Source: Candidatus Collierbacteria bacterium | GTDB taxonomy: Bacteria; Patescibacteriota; Microgenomatia; UBA1400; JACPES01 | Direction of reading: 5' to 3' | DNA length: 64,000 bases | Assembly: GCA_016183365.1 (NCBI GenBank) | Contig: JACPES010000003.1 | Coordinates: forward strand, 169,467 to 233,466 | Part shown: positions 2,083 to 19,962 of the stretch, in pieces | How positions within the stretch are numbered: position 1 is the stretch's first letter | Layout of the letters: every line of letters begins with the position of its first letter | Translations under genes and position numbers: made by a program | The notes under the pieces: generated by a model | What the model was told of the DNA's origin: nothing | Database searches by the model: none | Seen by the model: the letters and a program-made list of their open reading frames with translations, nothing else

Positions 2083-2894
2083 AACCAACTACGCCCGGTA
2101 GACGCCATTTATCTCTGGTAGAAGTTAAATTTAAAGGTCGGCCGGAAAAATCTTTAATTGCCGGAATTTCTCATCGGCCGGCTGGCCGGAATTTCTCCGG
2201 TCGGGTGACTATCCGTCACCGCGGCGGGGGCGAAAAAAGATTTTTGCGGATTATCGACTGGAAACGGGACATTGAAGGCATACCCGGAAAAGTCGTCCGG
2301 ATTGAATATGATCCCAACCGTTCGGCCTGGATTGGTTTAATTGTTTATGCTAACGGAGCCAAGCGTTATATGTTAGCCCCGGAAGGTTTAATTGTTGGAC
2401 AAACGATTATGGCCGGAGTTCAAGCTCCGATCGAAATAGGAAATTCATTGCCTTTGTCGGAAATACCGGTGGGAATGGCGATACATAACTTGGAACTTCG
2501 TCCCGGTAAGGGAGCCCAAATGGTGAGAAGCGCCGGACAGGCGGCCTTAATCCAAGCCAAAGATGAAAAAGGGGTTAATGTTAAACTACCATCCGGAGAG
2601 TTAAGGCATTTCCCTCTTAACGTTAAAGCCACCATAGGCCAAGTCAGCAACGTGACGCATAAAAACGAAAAGCTGGGCAAGGCCGGCAGAAGACGCCACA
2701 TGGGTTGGCGGCCGGCAGTCAGAGGAGTAGCCATGAATCCGCGGCGGCATCCTCACGGCGGAGGCGAGGGGCGAAGCGGCATTGGTTTGAAGAGCCCGAA
2801 ATCATTATGGGGAAAACGAACAATGGGGAAGAAGACCAGGAGAAATAAATACAGCGATAAATTGATTTTGAGAGATAGGAGAGTGAAGGAATAA
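2079..2894 (+). CDS. rplB: 50S ribosomal protein L2
   Basis: GRNxxGRxTxRHRGGG and the C-terminal [13 protein letters not shown] motifs. Confidence 0.95.
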
Positions 2895-2896
2895 AT

Positions 2897-3181
2897 ATGT
2901 CCAGATCATCTAAAAAAGGTCCGTATATTGACGAAAAACTGACGATAAAAGTCACAAAGCAAAAGGCGTCCGGAGAGAAAACCCCGATCAAAACCTGGGC
3001 CCGGGATTCACAAATTCCGCCGGATTTTGTCGGGCATACTTTTTCTGTTCATAACGGCAAAATCTTTAAAGACGTATTTATCACCGAATCTATGGTGGGA
3101 TACAGGTTGGGAGAATTTTCCCCGACCAGAACATTCAGGGGTCATGGCAGAATGGTTAAAAGATTGATGACTAAGACTTAA
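2897..3181 (+). CDS. rpsS: 30S ribosomal protein S19
   Basis: [10 protein letters not shown] ... HNGK ... GHTFSVHNG motif. Confidence 0.9.
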
Positions 3182-3195
3182 AAAGAAAGGAAGAA

Positions 3196-3597
3196 ATGAA
3201 CAATAAACAGGAAACAAGAAACAGGAATCAAGAAACAATGATAGTCAGGGCGGAATCGTCCGTTATCAGACAATCGGTCAGAAAAATGCAGTTGGTGACC
3301 AGAGCCATATCCGGAATGACCCCGGCTACGGCAGTAGAAGTTTTACAGTTTATGGATAAAAAAGCGGCTGAACCGATTGGAAAAACTATCCAACAAGCTA
3401 TAGCCAACGCGACTAATAATTTGAAAATCGCCGAAAGTTCTTTTGGCCGATTGTTGGTTGAACTGCAAGAGGGGCCGACGATGAAACGGTGGCGGATGGG
3501 AAGCCGGGGCCGGACCAAGCCGATTTTGAAAAGGACGGGGAAAATAGTGGTAAAGCTGTTTGTAAAAATCAATGAACAAAAAACAAAAAACAAATAA
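3196..3597 (+). CDS. rplV: 50S ribosomal protein L22. The alternative start at 3238 removes an A/C-repeat-encoded N-terminal extension.
   Basis: MIVRAESSVIRQSVRKMQLVTRAISGM... is L22-like. The N- and C-terminal extensions are encoded by the ACAAAGAACAAA repeat. Confidence 0.85.
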   Translation: MNNKQETRNRNQETMIVRAESSVIRQSVRKMQLVTRAISGMTPATAVEVLQFMDKKAAEPIGKTIQQAIANATNNLKIAESSFGRLLVELQEGPTMKRWRMGSRGRTKPILKRTGKIVVKLFVKINEQKTKNK

Positions 3598-13773: not shown

Positions 13774-13810
13774 CTGGGATATGAAACGAAGGTGGTTTTA
13801 AAAACAAGTC

Positions 13811-13838
13811 TTGACAAGCCGGTTATTGTGTGTACAAT
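13811..13838 (+). promoter_or_regulatory. Strong sigma70-type promoter: TTGACA, 16 nt spacer, then TACAAT.
   Basis: The sequence ttgacaagccggttattgtgtgtacaat lies just upstream of the antitoxin ATG at 13846. Confidence 0.6.
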
Positions 13839-13845
13839 TGGACAC

Positions 13846-14151
13846 ATGAATATTCAAACTCAATTGGAGGACTACCATAATTTGACTACATGGCTTTATT
13901 CTTGGGGAAAGGAGCCACAGAAATCGCGTCGGGTTCAATTGAAAATGCCGGCGGCAATAGTGGAGATGTTGGATAAAAAGTTCCCTAAAATTAATAGGAG
14001 CAGGCTGTTGACTCAAGCTGTTGTAGAATTGTTAATCAGGAAAACCAGGGCGGACAGACCGGATTTGGAACAATGGCTGGCAGCGGAGCAAGATGACTTA
14101 GACGAAATGTGGAGTTATCTTAAATTCCGTGATAAAAAACAGAAAATATAA
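13846..14151 (+). CDS. Ribbon-helix-helix (CopG-like) antitoxin.
   Basis: VQLKMPAAIVEMLDKKFPKINRSRLLTQAVVELL shows a beta-alpha-alpha RHH pattern. It overlaps the downstream toxin gene. Confidence 0.55.
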   Translation: MNIQTQLEDYHNLTTWLYSWGKEPQKSRRVQLKMPAAIVEMLDKKFPKINRSRLLTQAVVELLIRKTRADRPDLEQWLAAEQDDLDEMWSYLKFRDKKQKI

Positions 14152-14476
14152 GATTGGGGAGATTTATTTGGTTCGTTTCCATCCTGCCGCTGGCGCGGAA
14201 TTAAAACGTTATCGGCCTGCGGCAATTATTTCCGGGAAAATAAATGGTGCCGATCCCCGATTTTCATTGATTGCTCCGTTAACTACAGGCGGAATGATTA
14301 ACAGGAACTACGAAATGATGATAAAGCGTCGAAATGATTTAGCTAAAGATTCGACGCTATTGGTTTGGTATTTAAGAACGGTTGATATCAGGAGAATTGG
14401 GGAGAGAATTGCTGAACTAAATCAGTCTGAAGTTAAAGTTATGAAACGGAAGCTTAAAAATTTGCTGGATTTCTAG
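14129..14476 (+). CDS. MazF/PemK-family mRNA interferase toxin.
   Basis: GEIYLVRFHPAAGAELKRYRPAAIIS ... LIAPLTTG matches the MazF GDIxxVDFDPxxGxExxxxRPAVVxS ... CxPxTT signature. Confidence 0.75.
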   Translation: MIKNRKYKIGEIYLVRFHPAAGAELKRYRPAAIISGKINGADPRFSLIAPLTTGGMINRNYEMMIKRRNDLAKDSTLLVWYLRTVDIRRIGERIAELNQSEVKVMKRKLKNLLDF

Positions 14477-14488
14477 AGATAAAAATTT

Positions 14489-16392
14489 TCAACCGGTGAG
14501 GAGGTGAGACAGGATTTCGGAAGGGAGACGGACGCGGCCGAATTGAGCCAGGCGTTTTTTGCCCTTTTTTTGTTTTTTTAATAATTTATCTTTCCGGGTT
14601 TGGTCTCCGCCGTAAAGCTTGGCGGTAACGTCTTTTCTCAACGCCGGTTTGGTTTCGCGGGCAATTATCTCTGCACCAATAGCGGCTTGGATGGGGACGG
14701 CGAATTGTTGGGAAGGCATCAACTCCTTTAGTTTTTCCACCATTTGTTTGCCGATTTGGGTGGTTTTGGACTTAACGATTATCCGGGACAAAGATTCGGC
14801 CGGTTCGTGGTTTAATAATATTGTCAGTTTGACTGCTTCAACCGGTTCAAGACCAATAATATCGTAGTCCATGGTGGCAAATCCCCGGGAAGCCGATTTA
14901 ACTTCATCAAACATGCCGCTGACCAATTCAGCCAGAGGAATAATGTAGGTCAGTTGGGCCCGGTTGCCGACAAAATTGGTATTGAGATATTTTCCGCGCC
15001 GGCTTTCGGCGATTTGCATGAGAGACCCTAGATATTCCTGAGGCGTAAAAATCATAGTCTTGGTCATTGGTTCTTTTACCTGGACAATCCTTGACGGATC
15101 GGGAAAATCGTTGGCGTTTTTAATAGTTAATGTCTGGCCGTCGGTGGTTTGGGCTGAATATTCGACGGTCGGCAAGGTCATAATAGTCGGCAAGCCAAAT
15201 TCTTTTTCCAGTCTTTCTCTAGTGATCTCAAGATGAAACAAGCCCAGGAAACCGCATTGCAGGCCGGGGCCTAAAACTTGAGAGAATATTTGTCGTGACG
15301 ATAGGCTGGCATCGGATAGTTTCAATTTTTCAAATCCTTCCAAAAACCTTTTAAAATCTTCCCCTTCGTCCGGATATAAATCAGCATATAAACTGGGTTT
15401 GGGCTCTCGATAGCCCGACAGTGGAACTAAAGAATTGAGAATAGGAAAGACGGTAATGGTGTCCCCGGCTTTGACCTTGCGGATATCTTTAAGGCCGGTA
15501 GCGATATAACCGACTTGGCCTGTCTCTAATCTATCTATTTGAGTTCTCTTTGGCGTAAAAATACCGATTTCTTTAGGCAGAAAATTCTGACGGAAGGCCA
15601 TTAGCGATAGTTTCTCACTGGCTGCAAGTTCCCCGTCGACAATTCTGACGAAGGCTATAACCCCCAAATGTTGGTCGTAAGTCGAATTAAAAATTAATCC
15701 CCGCAGGGGTAAATTTTGATTCCCTTTTGGGGCAGGTAATTCGGTTATTATCCGTTGGATTAAGTTTTCTACGCCCTGGCCGGTTTTAGCGGAAATCAGC
15801 GAGACCTCATTTTCTTTAAATCCAAACGCATTGTTTAGTTCAGTTAGTACTTCCGGGACATTGGCATTGGAAAGGTCGATTTTATTAATTACCGGAATTA
15901 AATACAGTTTTTGGGCCAGTGCCCGTTGAGCGTGAGCCAAAGTTTGGGCCTGAATTCCTTGAGTGGCATCTATTAATAGTATGGCGCCTTCGCAAGCCGC
16001 CAGACTCCTGTCGACTTCGTAGGCAAAATCGACGTGGCCGGGAGTGTCGATGAGATTCAGAATAAAATATGACGATAGATGGTTGAAGGTAGAAGATGGT
16101 GGTTGAGGATGGAGGATAGATGGTAGACGGTTTTCTATTTTCGATTTTCTATCTTCTACCACTATATTCAATCTTCTATCTTCTATCGTCTTGTTTTTCC
16201 ATTTCATCGTCACCGGCGCCAAACTGATAGTCACTCCGCGTTCGCGTTCGATGGGATTGGAGTCCAAAATTTGTTCCCGCATCTGCCTTTTTTCGACCGT
16301 GCCGGTAAATTCCATCAGCCTGTCTGATAATGTCGACTTTCCGTGGTCAACATGAGCAATTATTGCGAAATTTCTGATATTTATTGAAGTCA
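14489..16392 (-). CDS. lepA: Elongation factor 4 (LepA), with an in-frame insertion of about 35 aa in the G domain. The start is probably a GTG near 16392.
   Basis: NFAIIAHVDHGKSTLSDRL, DTPGHVDFAYEV, and the C-terminal LepA domain. The ORF track extends upstream to 16501. Confidence 0.85.
16081..16200. repeat. Inverted-repeat-bounded low-complexity element of about 120 bp, in-frame inside lepA.
   Basis: The termini are gacgatagatgg... and ...ttctatcttctatcgtc, with internal gatagaagat/atcttctatc repeats. It encodes IVVEDRKSKIENRLPSILHPQPPSSTFNHLSSY, which is absent from canonical LepA. Confidence 0.6.
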
Positions 16393-16416
16393 CGAAGATA
16401 TTATATGTTACGCGAG

Positions 16417-16680
16417 TTATTTTCGGTATAACTGACTGTGGGTGCCGAGGACTTCGAAATAAGCAATTCCTGACGAAATTTCTCGAAAAATTGCCCGCCA
16501 ATCACCGCTGATATTAATACTTCTGCAGCCAAAATATTTTCCGATAAGAGCATGATTATTAAGAAGAGGGTGGAATTGATTTCTCAAAAATTGTTCTAGA
16601 CGCTTGTTGAATGCCGATTTTATTTTAGAAGGCGCTTTAGCATATTGTTTACCGAAAGTCCGGCTGAACTTTGCTTTCAT
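16417..16680 (-). CDS. RelE/ParE (YafQ-like) toxin.
   Basis: MKAKFSRTFGKQYAKAPSKIKSAFNKRLEQFLRNQFHPLLNNHALIGKYFGCRSINISGDWRAIF matches the RelE family pattern. Confidence 0.65.
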   Translation of the reverse strand: MKAKFSRTFGKQYAKAPSKIKSAFNKRLEQFLRNQFHPLLNNHALIGKYFGCRSINISGDWRAIFREISSGIAYFEVLGTHSQLYRK

Positions 16681-16685
16681 AATTA

Positions 16686-16970
16686 TTATTCCGTCTGTTT
16701 TTCCAGCCAAGCAATAGCATCAGCGGCGTTACTGAAAGCCGGAGATGTTCGTCCGGTTTTTCTATCGATCTCGGATTCTTTTAAAGCCTTGATCAAATAT
16801 TCGCTAGGTTCTTCCGGGACCGCGCTGAAAAATACAGATTTAGTCCGCGCTAATTGTTTGAGGTAAGCATTAACTAAAGAGCTTAAGCTAAAGCCCAAAT
16901 CAGCCGCAATTTTTTGGACCTGAGCTTTAAGGTCGGGATCGGTCTTGATAGTCATAACAGCGGTATTCAT
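16686..16970 (-). CDS. RelB/DinJ-family antitoxin.
   Basis: MTIKTDPDLKAQVQKIAADLGFSLSSLVNAYLKQLARTKSV is DinJ-like. It lies directly upstream of the RelE toxin. Confidence 0.65.
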   Translation of the reverse strand: MNTAVMTIKTDPDLKAQVQKIAADLGFSLSSLVNAYLKQLARTKSVFFSAVPEEPSEYLIKALKESEIDRKTGRTSPAFSNAADAIAWLEKQTE

Positions 16971-16989
16971 AATATAAATAGTATATACA

Positions 16990-17025
16990 AAGATAGTATT
17001 TTGTCAATACAATAGAAATCAGCAG
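16990..17025 (-). promoter_or_regulatory. Promoter on the minus strand (TTGACA, 16 nt spacer, TATACT) for the RelB-RelE operon.
   Basis: The minus strand reads ttgacaaaatactatctttgtatatact. Confidence 0.5.
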
Positions 17026-17045
17026 CAACTTCTCTATTGGCCATC

Positions 17046-17105
17046 TTATGATTTCAATTATTTTCAAGCAAAGCTTGAACCTTCTCTGCAGGAAAATAAT
17101 TGAAG
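17046..17105. repeat. Hairpin repeat with 13 bp arms TTCAATTATTTTC / GAAAATAATTGAA around a 28 nt loop (copy 1).
   Basis: Read directly. Related copies lie at 17466-17495 (arms only) and 48665-48719 (similar loop). Confidence 0.75.
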
Positions 17106-17194
17106 TAGATATAATGTTTGACATAAATTGAGCGTGCCAGATTAATTGATGACTTACAGAATATTCTCAAGACTTAACATTTCTTATTAAGGTG

Positions 17195-17218
17195 AAATGA
17201 TTCGAATCATTTAACCCA
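17195..17218. repeat. Palindrome AAATGATTCGAATCATTT (family copy 1).
   Basis: Read directly. Related copies lie at 36256-36279 and 43578-43603. Confidence 0.75.
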
Positions 17219-17274
17219 TCTTATTCATTTTCTTTTGACGTTAATTTAACTTCAATAAAATATAAAGCCGCGAA

Positions 17275-17335
17275 ATTTCTGATATTTGTTGAAGTCACGA
17301 AGATATTATATGTTACGCGATTTATTTTCTAAACT
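17275..17335. repeat. Duplicate of about 58 bp of the lepA promoter plus its first codons.
   Basis: gcgaaatttctgatatttgttgaagtcacgaagatattatatgttacgcgatttattttc matches 16364-16420 at all but two positions. Confidence 0.8.
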
Positions 17336-17465
17336 CTGGACAATTTAATGAGTCCTAAAATATCCAGATGATCTGATTCGCGTTGCCACATAAGCATTGT
17401 TTTTGTTCCTATAAAGATTATTGTCTCACATAAAAGATTAAAAGATCTATACTATTGCGAATTAA

Positions 17466-17495
17466 TTACTTCAATTATTTAAATAATTGAAGTGG
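17466..17495. repeat. Hairpin repeat, arms-only copy: cttcaattatttaaataattgaag.
   Basis: Read directly. Confidence 0.7.
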
Positions 17496-17622
17496 ATATT
17501 TTTATACGGATCGAGTGCATCGGTTTGAGTGGTGGCTCGCAAGATATTCTTTAAAAAAAATCAGCCGGAAGAACTTCATGAAGTTATCTTAACATTGTGC
17601 CGACTTTGAGCATGGTCAGCAA

Positions 17623-18042
17623 TTAATTCGAAAACACCACTAACTGCAATAATTTATCGAAACTAACAGAAAACTGCTCGAAGATATCGAGCCGACCCAA
17701 TAATAGTATCGAATCTTGAGAATGGACGAAATAACTTCTGACTTCAATCTCACGATTGTCGATCATTAACTTTATTTTTCCGGGCGAAGCCAGCAGGGCT
17801 TGTTGGCCAATTCCATAGAGTTTGGTTTTGATATTAGATTCATATTTAATTCCCAGTCTATTAGCTAAAGAAATCGGCAACATGGTGACATCGGCGCCAC
17901 TGTCGATTAAAAACCATAAGTGTTGCCAGCCCCACGAGGCTCTAACTGGAATTAATGCCAGGGGATTAAATATCCGACCTAAATCAATCTGTTTGTATTG
18001 ATAGGGAAAAGTAGGCACTGACTTGGCCATATTTTTCGACAA
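17623..18042 (-). CDS. Retropepsin-like (clan AA) aspartic protease, single domain.
   Basis: LIDSGADVTML shows the D-S/T-G-A active-site motif; the 139 aa size fits a homodimeric retropepsin fold. Confidence 0.7.
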   Translation of the reverse strand: MSKNMAKSVPTFPYQYKQIDLGRIFNPLALIPVRASWGWQHLWFLIDSGADVTMLPISLANRLGIKYESNIKTKLYGIGQQALLASPGKIKLMIDNREIEVRSYFVHSQDSILLLGRLDIFEQFSVSFDKLLQLVVFSN

Positions 18043-18205
18043 ATCCGATAGCTGTTTTTTGAGGCGGAACGGCTTTTCTTTTCAAATCTTTAAACAGCAA
18101 ATCAATGTTTTTAGCCTGAGAATAAACTTTGCGTCCGGTCTTGCTGGTTGCCACCCACTTGCCGCCGAATTTTTTCTGAAGCTTAAGATAAATGTCTGTT
18201 TTCAT
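17984..18205 (-). CDS. Small 74 aa protein with a GKWVA motif (DUF5678-like). It overlaps the protease gene.
   Basis: MKTDIYLKLQKKFGGKWVATSKTGRKVY... The ORF track's upstream extension (to 18280) lacks coding character. Confidence 0.4.
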   Translation of the reverse strand: MKTDIYLKLQKKFGGKWVATSKTGRKVYSQAKNIDLLFKDLKRKAVPPQKTAIGFVEKYGQVSAYFSLSIQTD

Positions 18206-18303
18206 GATTTGAGTATAAGCTTTGGCTTTAACGAAAGTCAATGGTTGGCAACTAACTCGTTTGGGAAAGGCACTTCGCATAGATTATAAACAGGAGCCCT
18301 GGC

Positions 18304-19962
18304 TCACACCTCCCTCGTCGTCGATTCGAGGACTTCTTCAGATTCCGAAAGCACCTGTTTCCAGTTGCCGATTTTTTGGGTTATTTCCAAAACGGCCGAG
18401 AGCTGTTCTATTTTTAAAAGTTTGGCCAAAATTAAATAAACCACTAACCCGATGACCGACACGCTGGTAGATAGACCAATTAAGGCTAAGGTTTTAGTGG
18501 TATCAAAAACAAATTGATCCAACAATCTTAATGGCACCCATAGGCATAAGCCGGTAGCGACGGAAGCGATCGCGATTTTAGTAGCAGGTTTTGCCATTCT
18601 CTTTATCAGCCCCGGAACTATCAACATATTTAAGACAACGGTCAGAATGATGACATTAAAAAAATCCAAAATTACGATCGAGGTGACTATGCCTAAAATA
18701 CCTAAGCCTAATTTTATGGAAAAAAAAGGCGCCAAAAAGATAACCGGCAGAGTTGAAATAGCCGCGCTGATTAAAGGAATTTTGGTATTTTGAGCGGCAT
18801 AAAAAGAGCGGGTTAGCAATTGATTTATGGCTTGGGCCGGAACTGACAAAGAGAATATAGCCACGGCTTTTCCGGTTAAAAGCGTGGCTTCCCAAGGAAA
18901 CGCTTTTGATCCGAAAGCTAATCTGACTGCCGGAATTCTTAAGACCAGCAATAAGGCAGCTGCCGGCAAAACAAAAAATAACAGTTGTAATATAGTGGCG
19001 GCAATAGTTTCGCCGAATTTATCCTGGCCTTCTTCTCTGGCATGGACTAAAGTCGGGAAAGAAGCCTGGCCAATGGTGGCTCCTAAAATCCCGATTGGGA
19101 GAATATACAGCTGCCTGGCAAAATTAAATAAAGTTATGGTACCGGCAGCCAGGCTGCTGGAGACGGCAACGGCAATGACTCTCTCCAATTGGCCTAAGCC
19201 CAATGTAAAAGCCCTGGCCGGCATCAGCCGGAGCATTTTTTTGACGTAAGGATTTTTCCAATCGGTGGATAGTCTCGGTCTAAATCCAACTTTTATTACT
19301 GCCGGAAGCTGAATTAAAAAATGGAGAAATGAGCCTAAAACCACCCCGACAGCCGGACCGAAAATCCCGATAGAGGGAGACAGGAATATGGTTCCGATGA
19401 TGATTCCCAGGTTATAGAATAAAGGCGCCAATGCCGACAGAATAAACAAATGGTGAGACTGCAAAATTCCGGTCATAAATGAACTTAAGGCAAAGAAGAA
19501 TTGAGCTGCCAGCATTACCCGGATTAATTCAGCGGTAATTTGAGTTAATTCAGGGGTAAAGCTGGGAGCTAAAATTTTACTGGCGGGATAAGCAAAAATA
19601 AATAATCCGGCCGATAACACCAAGAATAAAAACAAAATGCCGCTGGCGGCGGAATTGGCGATATGCCAGGCTTCCTTTTTATCGCGTCTTAGGGCTTCGG
19701 TGAAAACCGGAATGAACGCGGCCGATAGAGCTCCCAGAATTAATAATTGAAAGATCGTGTCCGGTAAGACAAAGGCCGCGAAATAAGCATCCAGCAGTGA
19801 CTTGTGATTAACAAAGAATAGTTGGGCTAAAAGCCGATTCCGGACTAACCCTAATAAACTCGACAGCCCATAGGCGATCATGATAACAGTGGCGGCGGAT
19901 AAAATACTGCTTTGCTTACGCAAAATAATATTGCTACCGTTTTTTATAAAAGTTGAAACCAT
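18304..19962 (-). CDS. murJ: Lipid II flippase MurJ/MviN.
   Basis: A 552 aa polytopic protein whose N-terminal region LLGLVRNRLLAQLFF... is typical of MurJ. Confidence 0.8.
   Translation of the reverse strand: MVSTFIKNGSNIILRKQSSILSAATVIMIAYGLSSLLGLVRNRLLAQLFFVNHKSLLDAYFAAFVLPDTIFQLLILGALSAAFIPVFTEALRRDKKEAWHIANSAASGILFLFLVLSAGLFIFAYPASKILAPSFTPELTQITAELIRVMLAAQFFFALSSFMTGILQSHHLFILSALAPLFYNLGIIIGTIFLSPSIGIFGPAVGVVLGSFLHFLIQLPAVIKVGFRPRLSTDWKNPYVKKMLRLMPARAFTLGLGQLERVIAVAVSSSLAAGTITLFNFARQLYILPIGILGATIGQASFPTLVHAREEGQDKFGETIAATILQLLFFVLPAAALLLVLRIPAVRLAFGSKAFPWEATLLTGKAVAIFSLSVPAQAINQLLTRSFYAAQNTKIPLISAAISTLPVIFLAPFFSIKLGLGILGIVTSIVILDFFNVIILTVVLNMLIVPGLIKRMAKPATKIAIASVATGLCLWVPLRLLDQFVFDTTKTLALIGLSTSVSVIGLVVYLILAKLLKIEQLSAVLEITQKIGNWKQVLSESEEVLESTTREV

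Follow-up and report, generated by a model that had tools for sequence, protein, structure and literature searches.

What does a free-standing retropepsin-like aspartic protease do in a bacterium of the candidate phyla radiation (CPR), and does it work together with the small protein whose gene overlaps its own? The question is raised by a locus in a 64,000-nucleotide (nt) stretch of contig JACPES010000003.1 from a Candidatus Collierbacteria bacterium; the whole of this stretch is called the window below. The locus is a two-gene cassette in which a short open reading frame (ORF) for a DUF5678-type protein comes first and the ORF for a single-domain clan AA protease follows, overlapping it (Table 1). 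The initial annotation, drawn from the sequence alone, had suggested that the two genes form a functional module, perhaps toxin-antitoxin (TA)-like or perhaps a protease with its substrate. Our analysis found a near-obligate pairing of DUF5678 and protease genes across phyla, and a functional coupling of the two proteins is supported by their family assignments, their homologs, the ratio of nonsynonymous to synonymous substitution rates (dN/dS), and conserved adjacency. In the choice between the two roles, the evolutionary pattern leans toward a TA-like or defense-like module, with a dimeric protease as the putative effector and the DUF5678 protein as its putative neutralizer; we hold this reading tentatively, with a little less than even confidence.

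The pairing was examined from both sides. A scan with the protease profile over one genome per GTDB species gave 15 loci, which together with the window and loci L001 and L002 made 20 protease ORFs; 19 were testable, the L017 protease at a contig start being left out. The scanned loci came from Amesbacteria, Gottesmanbacteria, Roizmanbacteria, and other Patescibacteria, and the more distant ones from Fraserbacteria, a deltaproteobacterium, a nanohaloarchaeon, three Omnitrophota, and Margulisiibacteriota. A DUF5678-type ORF was found directly upstream of the protease in every testable locus (19 of 19; 17 clear and 2 weak). For the close protease homologs, this was a gene of the 73-amino-acid (aa) type that overlapped the protease gene (10 of 10), and the distant homologs likewise had a small upstream ORF (9 of 9), which was canonical DUF5678 in seven cases (41 to 60 bits), borderline in one (21.9 bits), and weak in one. 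From the small-gene side, a metagenome scan with the small-protein profile showed a protease directly downstream of 22 of 27 full-length small genes, counts that are approximate because the metagenomic loci are partly redundant. Further intact pairs were present in the neighborhoods of additional DUF5678 proteins (L020 to L023, L060/L061, L064 to L066, and L067 to L070); an apparent truncation of the protease in L064/L066 proved to be a gene-calling difference only. The adjacency first noticed in the window is thus consistent across genomes from either direction.

Loss of a partner was one-sided. The protease has been lost independently at least six times, and the small ORF was intact every time; the reverse case, an intact protease of the DUF5678-linked family without the small gene, was not seen among the loci collected. 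Four loci hold clear internal-deletion remnants that lack the catalytic core: L041 (VPT joined to ITFDKEKQSVIFRE and a stop codon), L043 (MDKQVSTRT joined to YFDYSKESTLLLGRIDIFDKFTITFDKNKKEIIFQE and a stop codon), L052 (MDKSALT and a stop codon, then ISVYFDSKNQKIIFNHF and a second stop codon), and L018 (MIKFHYRKESSIISGTVLRPVADI joined to KITFDEKHESIIFT and a stop codon). L018, which shares its neighborhood with L060, has lost the catalytic core by a clean in-frame deletion of 264 nt relative to the intact 132-aa gene of L060. In L062/L063, the protease gene is reduced to about its first nine codons, and no clear protease remnant was found in L046/L047. That the catalytic core has been cleanly deleted again and again suggests that the protease either carries a cost or can be dispensed with.

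The cassette also occurs in unusual arrangements. Two copies are present in L001 and in L005. Those in L001 (877 to 1517 on the minus strand and 1750 to 2335 on the plus strand) are divergent, face away from each other at a distance of ∼230 nt, and lie beside a HicA gene; an upstream 93-aa ORF also adjoins the two cassettes. The L005 copies are in tandem, and the second protease has DTGFD in place of DSGAD. In the Fraserbacteria locus L010 (2263 to 2913), the DUF5678 and protease ORFs are in the same frame with a single stop codon between them, and the protease is without its usual N-terminal 38 residues; the copy may have decayed, or the arrangement may be one of readthrough. Finally, a 93-aa ORF on the minus strand of L032 (260 to 541) has two partial matches to the DUF5678 profile, possibly through duplication within the ORF; the intact cassette is 2.5 kb away, and no protease adjoins this ORF.

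As judged from the model, the protease has a retropepsin-like fold with an intact active site. It scored above the Pfam cutoffs for the two families that the initial annotation had predicted, Asp_protease_2 (PF13650; 28.9 bits versus 24.3) and RVP (21.1 versus 20.7), and also matched gag-asp_proteas. An NCBIfam scan gave only a subthreshold TIGR02281 match for the pair, and neither protein matched PHROGs. The motif LIDSGADVTML, previously noted in the 139-aa ORF counted from the TTG start, is present, and in an alignment of 22 homologs S48, G49, A50, and D51 were invariant and D47 nearly so (N in 1 of 22); the doubt that the catalytic Asp might be missing once the protein was properly aligned is thereby removed. 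The DSGAD motif is also retained in the broader protease family. The second retropepsin signature is equally well kept: L113 to L115, G116, R117, and D119 were invariant and L118 nearly invariant in the same alignment, and distant homologs carry it as PLLLGRLDIF. A total of 42 homologs were 130 to 137 aa long. A profile search of the PDB returned Ddi1 (∼1e-3) and retroviral proteases. The structural model had a predicted local distance difference test (pLDDT) score of 79.6, with residues 1 to 21, including an invariant TFPYQYK, disordered; its Foldseek matches were the equine infectious anemia virus (EIAV), simian immunodeficiency virus (SIV), and human immunodeficiency virus (HIV) proteases, ApRick, and the Ddi1 RVP domain, all at a probability of 1.0 and with target template-modeling (TM) scores of 0.57 to 0.69. 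Because each ∼135-aa chain carries one catalytic Asp, the protease would have to homodimerize for activity. A signal peptide or transmembrane segment was not evident in the sequence or model of the window protease.

The initial annotation regarded free-standing retropepsins as uncommon in bacteria, which was not borne out: the protease profile matched 1,706 metagenomic clusters (50% identity) at an E value of ≤1e-3, 215 at ≤1e-10, and 4 at ≤1e-30. The CPR protease subfamily is small, and the wider family is not rare. Homologs of 170 to 413 aa were considered as possible fusions and rejected: they form a subfamily of their own, in which the N terminus is extended by hydrophobic sequence and DUF5678 is absent. 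The N-terminal segment of this subfamily (P0238 to P0326) is apparently membrane anchoring and often follows long low-complexity Q/P/N-rich regions; its motifs read LLDSGAVVSSLP...LLGRKGFF.

The small ORF had been given as 74 aa; the ORF is there, and that length counts the stop codon. Its product (MKTDIYLKLQKKFGGKWVATSKTGRKVY...YGQVSAYFSLSIQTD) is a basic protein with the motif KKFGGKWVA. The predicted match to DUF5678 (PF18929) was obtained with the Pfam hidden Markov model, at a score under the curated cutoff (18.6 bits versus 23.2; E = 1.7e-3). Other comparisons point the same way. Several close homologs carry a precomputed PF18929 match; a joint profile search recovers the canonical DUF5678 and CPR-type small proteins together; and canonical DUF5678 genes occupy the same position, directly upstream of the homologous, distant proteases. 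A profile-profile alignment of the CPR-type protein with canonical DUF5678 (hhalign) gave a probability of 75.6% and an E value of 2.4e-5, over 32 core columns only. On these sequence comparisons, the small protein is probably a divergent DUF5678. Homologs of it number 63, mostly of 73 aa, and the median dN/dS over 81 locus pairs was 0.09 for codons 1 to 57, the nonoverlapping part of the gene, with one pair showing a dN of 0 at a dS of 0.6. This means that the small ORF is a protein-coding gene under strong purifying selection, and the concern that it might have neither homologs nor a coding signature can be set aside. Its AlphaFold model (pLDDT, 66) consists of three strands and a helix, followed by a flexible linker and, at the C terminus, a hairpin modeled with low confidence. 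The C-terminal tail is conserved, as EKYGQ.SAY here and as AKIP...VLVL in the canonical forms. A search of PDB sequences with the small protein found only spurious low-complexity matches to designer pentatricopeptide repeat (PPR) proteins, and only one weak palindrome was present near the start of the ORF, located inside the coding region.

The overlap between the genes was analyzed by a two-frame comparison of ten related loci. A possible protease start codon was always present at position 5 (ATG) or position 9 (GTG). The ATG at position 5 arises from the invariant Tyr-Gly codons of the small protein (TAT GG); in L001, L002, and L003, the Tyr codon is TAC, the ATG is absent, and the GTG at position 9 is present. 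In L002, a stop codon immediately precedes position 9. Because every locus keeps one of these starts, the overlap in the window is probably 47 nt or 35 nt long. The overlap noted in the initial annotation therefore holds, and its length of ∼59 nt does not, since this would apply only with the TTG, the least likely of the starts. Inside the overlap the constraint switches, with the small frame conserved first (EKYGQ.SAY) and then the protease frame (TFPYQYK); the C-terminal residues of the small protein vary in length there, ending in SL, SLSI, or SLSIQTD. The distant relatives have a 4-nt overlap of the ATGA/GTGA type, in the other frame. Because the promoter-like site found by a consensus scan ends so close to the small ORF, the mRNA of the operon may begin with a very short leader or with none; promoter-like sites in the region were no more numerous than in shuffled sequence.

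The company that the cassette keeps is varied. The CPR-type small gene was present in 44 loci, which fell into 15 flank-context groups, and the context of the window was unique in the sample. The largest group comprised 21 loci with the cassette just downstream of recJ, and the cassette is thus stably inherited in one lineage. TA or defense genes were frequent neighbors: HicA in L001, PIN/Phd in L020, AbiEii in L060, and NACHT in L064 to L066, along with YafQ/RelB and MazF in the window. Viral contigs gave a single weak locus (L028; 30% identity), and therefore the cassette is not phage-borne. The L028 locus (IMGVR_UViG_3300005546_000016, 2646 to 3306) contains a 219-aa ORF whose C-terminal half holds a distant retropepsin-like domain (residues 94 to 201), and no DUF5678 was detected at the locus. 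A plasmid search with canonical DUF5678 gave no match.

The closest catalogued entity is the PADLOC candidate PDC-M52. The PDC systems are 145 candidates drawn from genes embedded in known defense systems, a guilt-by-embedding approach (bioRxiv 10.1101/2024.01.29.577857). The window protease matched PDC-M52B at an E value of 2.7e-4 only, and the window small protein had no PADLOC match. The DUF5678-linked proteases as a set matched PDC-M52B or PDC-M08B weakly to moderately, down to an E value of 3e-10, and their small proteins matched nothing. A tblastn search of plasmids found distant relatives of the protease (25 to 27% identity) on the cyanobacterial plasmids pP880101 of Rippkaea and pPg_02 of Pseudanabaena. 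Each is preceded by a 72-aa acidic protein that is unrelated to DUF5678 and overlaps by 8 nt. Both pairs belong to PDC-M52 proper, the A protein matching at 2.6e-8 and the B protein at 2e-47. The Rippkaea pair adjoins HicAB, ParA, and insertion sequence (IS) elements. What the PDC-M52 and PDC-M08 systems share with the window cassette is the order, a gene for a ∼70-aa protein first and then an overlapping gene for a ∼130-aa single-domain retropepsin-like protease, and the surroundings of TA, defense, and mobile genes in which this type of cassette is found. They differ in that the window cassette fails the match on both proteins, in that PDC-M52A is an unrelated acidic protein, and in their hosts, which are cyanobacteria for PDC-M52 and CPR, Omnitrophota, and DPANN for the DUF5678 cassette. 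Because the PDC-M52 pairs use the unrelated 72-aa protein, the same protease class is joined to nonhomologous small partners in different lineages, a swapping of partners that we regard as typical of TA and defense modules. The Rippkaea pair (L058; Rippkaea orientalis PCC 8801 pP880101, NC_011721.1, 15945 to 16554) is annotated as a "hypothetical protein" and an "aspartyl protease family protein," has HicAB, ParA, and two IS transposases on its flanks, and would offer a convenient cultured-organism model for such cassettes.

In a TA-like or defense-like module, the two overlapping genes would be cotranscribed and the downstream protease of ∼131 to 135 aa would be the effector, active as a homodimer. 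The 73-aa DUF5678 protein would be the first product of the shared mRNA, in at least stoichiometric amounts, and would bind the protease and prevent its activity, by filling the substrate cleft or else by using its own conserved C-terminal strand region to block dimerization. When the small protein is lost or titrated, the protease would be released. We infer the binding, the inhibition, the toxicity, and any trigger. Several trends support this reading. First, the small gene precedes and overlaps the protease gene, as in type II TA systems such as HicAB, RelBE, and MazEF, where a small upstream neutralizer and a downstream effector are encoded in an overlapping operon of two small, codirectional genes. 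Second, the protease is found in obligate dependence on the small gene. Third, decay is one-sided, the effector gene being the first to go and the upstream gene persisting, again as in type II TA systems. Fourth, the distribution is patchy, with multiple copies and multiple contexts, and other TA pairs and defense genes lie next to the cassette. Fifth, the partner appears to have been swapped in PDC-M52. Finally, the two proteins act as separate chains, since no DUF5678-protease fusion is present among the 120 listed DUF5678 matches or the 150 best protease representatives.

A number of observations weigh against such a module. The putative effector is an aspartic protease, whereas those of type II TA systems are RNases, kinases, or acetyltransferases, and we know of no aspartic-protease toxin. 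Most type II antitoxins carry a DNA-binding domain, and the small protein has no recognizable one; no DNA-binding family was found in it by the Pfam, NCBIfam, or PADLOC scans. A fold search with the small protein against the PDB gave nothing significant, the best match being the HicB N-terminal domain (probability, 0.72; E = 0.7). The asymmetric loss of the protease would be expected just as much of an enzyme dedicated to processing one substrate and of no use in its absence. The cassette linked to recJ in 21 loci looks more like a resident housekeeping pair, PDC-M52 is itself a candidate only, and the redundancy of the metagenomic loci blurs the counts. A further-reaching claim, that DUF5678 proteins are natural retropepsin inhibitors and form with the protease the first TA or abortive-defense family with an aspartic-protease effector, widespread in CPR, DPANN, and Omnitrophota and sister to the PDC-M52 and PDC-M08 candidates with a swapped neutralizer, we regard as rather doubtful.

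The main alternative is that the two proteins are a protease and its dedicated substrate; the DUF5678 protein would then be the working molecule or its precursor, and a nontoxic protease would only mature, trim, or turn it over, as a retroviral protease does with the upstream Gag. Strict co-occurrence and cotranslation fit this, the conserved tail of the small protein, modeled at low confidence, would suit docking into the protease, small genes that stay intact after protease loss fit a protein with a function of its own, and the recJ-adjacent position is stable in one lineage. There is also a precedent: the cassette of an Xre-type regulator and a COG2856/ImmA-type metalloprotease was at one time predicted to be TA-like and turned out to consist of a protease and its dedicated substrate. 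It too combines a small protein with a small protease in two genes; the differences are that its protease is a zinc metalloprotease and that the partner has a clear helix-turn-helix DNA-binding domain. However, the unrelated partner in cyanobacteria is easier to explain by swapped inhibitors or antitoxins than by swapped substrates, the cassette clusters with TA and defense genes and occurs in multiple copies, and the small protein lacks a signal peptide and has no modification enzyme or other maturation machinery nearby. On balance we consider a protease-substrate pair unlikely, and the two remaining explanations are less likely still. An obligate hetero-complex, in which the small protein would be a structural subunit or activator of the protease dimer, for instance by adding strands to the interface sheet formed by the N and C termini, and the pair would be one enzyme with an unrelated cellular target, is improbable: near-obligate pairing agrees with it, and in the models the disordered protease residues 1 to 21 and the poorly ordered small-protein tail could fold on association, but a pure accessory subunit should decay together with its enzyme rather than outlast repeated protease loss, and characterized retropepsins are generally known to dimerize without helpers. 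Last, a self-cleaving, Gag-Pro-like DUF5678-protease polyprotein made by programmed +1 ribosomal frameshifting in the 35- to 47-nt overlap is hardly credible and was rejected. In its favor, the overlap is of unusual length and its nucleotide sequence (TTTCCCTATCAATACAAA) is conserved, the protease is in the +1 frame, and an aromatic-Pro dipeptide (TF/PY) in the protease N terminus resembles retroviral cleavage sites. Against it, 10 of 10 loci have a separate protease start codon, at position 5 or 9, and the GTG is present where the ATG is lost by a change that is synonymous for the small protein; the overlaps of distant relatives are simple 4-nt ones in the other frame, and the F-x-Y motif of these relatives is not F-P; and no in-frame fusion was found among the same DUF5678 matches and protease representatives.

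Returning to the TA-like or defense-like reading, the cassette can be compared with characterized enzymes. The window protease shares with the retroviral proteases and the Ddi1 RVP domain the fold, the D-S/T-G-A loop, the G-R-D/N motif, and one Asp per chain. It differs in being free-standing, with no polyprotein and no UBL/UBA domains, in its low identity (∼15 to 23%), and in an additional conserved N-terminal segment, TFPYQYK.I..G. Other prokaryotic single-domain proteases of clan AA are APRc/ApRick of Rickettsia (PMC4140852), RimB of Pseudomonas (PMC11957791), and Rlo of P. aeruginosa (PMC12239564); ApRick was among the best structural matches of the window protease model. APRc and the Rlo enzymes are described as membrane bound or secreted (PMC4140852, PMC12239564), and RimB as acting on one dedicated partner system within the RimABK complex (PMC11957791). 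In the available parts of these reports, none is described with a DUF5678 partner or in an overlapping two-gene cassette. Full-text literature searches found no paper on DUF5678/PF18929 in a protease context or on the pairing, and nothing relevant on retropepsins or aspartyl proteases together with TA systems or on the PDC-M candidates by name. The cassette is a solid, checkable lead and not a demonstrated new system. It provides a first functional context for DUF5678: one particular clade of prokaryotic retropepsin-like proteases has this protein as its obligate upstream partner. If the small protein does inhibit the protease, it would be, as far as we know, among the rare protein inhibitors of retropepsins that occur in nature and could inform ways of blocking dimeric retropepsins. 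It would then also define a TA or defense effector class based on aspartic proteolysis, which would bear on the biology of CPR and DPANN, whose small genomes retain the cassettes, and on catalogues of defense systems, since the DUF5678-protease pair is absent from PADLOC.

Table 1. Positions of the DUF5678-protease cassette, its sequence elements, and neighboring features in the window
Feature	Position	Strand	Details
Small ORF (DUF5678-type protein)	17984-18205	-	73 aa plus stop; basic protein; ATG at 18205, stop codon at 17984-17986
Retropepsin-like (clan AA) single-domain aspartic protease	17623-18030	-	135 aa; ATG at 18030 (protease position 5)
Alternative protease starts	18018; 18042	-	GTG at 18018 (protease position 9), 131 aa; TTG at 18042, 139 aa
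Dual-coding overlap	17984-18030	-	Protease frame is +1 to that of the small ORF; two-frame comparison, ten loci
Catalytic motif D-S-G-A-D	17890-17904	-	Codons GAC AGT GGC GCC GAT; residues 47-51
Second retropepsin signature LLLGRLD	17686-17706	-	Residues 113-119; corresponds to the retroviral G-R-D/N motif
Promoter-like site TTGACT-18 nt-TATACT	18212-18241	-	Consensus scan, 10/12 matches; ends 6 nt before the small-ORF ATG
MurJ	18304-19962	-	Upstream of the cassette
AT-rich noncoding stretch	16971-17622		650 nt; palindromes; between the RelB-like gene and the protease gene
YafQ-like/RelB pair	16417-16970	-	
MazF-like pair	13792-14476	+	

The surroundings of the cassette in the window agree with the initial annotation, which had placed murJ, a repeat-rich noncoding region, and two TA modules next to it; all are present. 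The noncoding stretch contains a perfect 13+13-nt palindrome at 17468 to 17493 (ACTTCAATTATTT/AAATAATTGAAGT) and a near-identical 19-mer at 17094 and 17481, 387 nt apart; it may represent an array of operators or what is left of one end of a mobile element. The window gave no match in Rfam or tRNA scans. The MazF-like gene is preceded and overlapped by a 119-aa ORF (13792 to 14151, plus strand), which has no Pfam match and is presumably a novel or divergent MazE-type antitoxin. A LepA homolog of 670 aa (14489 to 16501, minus strand) has a GTPase domain of 216 residues against a profile of 188 positions, and the additional segment, at about residues 100 to 150 (KNKTIEDRRLNIVVEDRKSKIENRLPSILHPQPPSS...), looks like a lineage-specific insertion.

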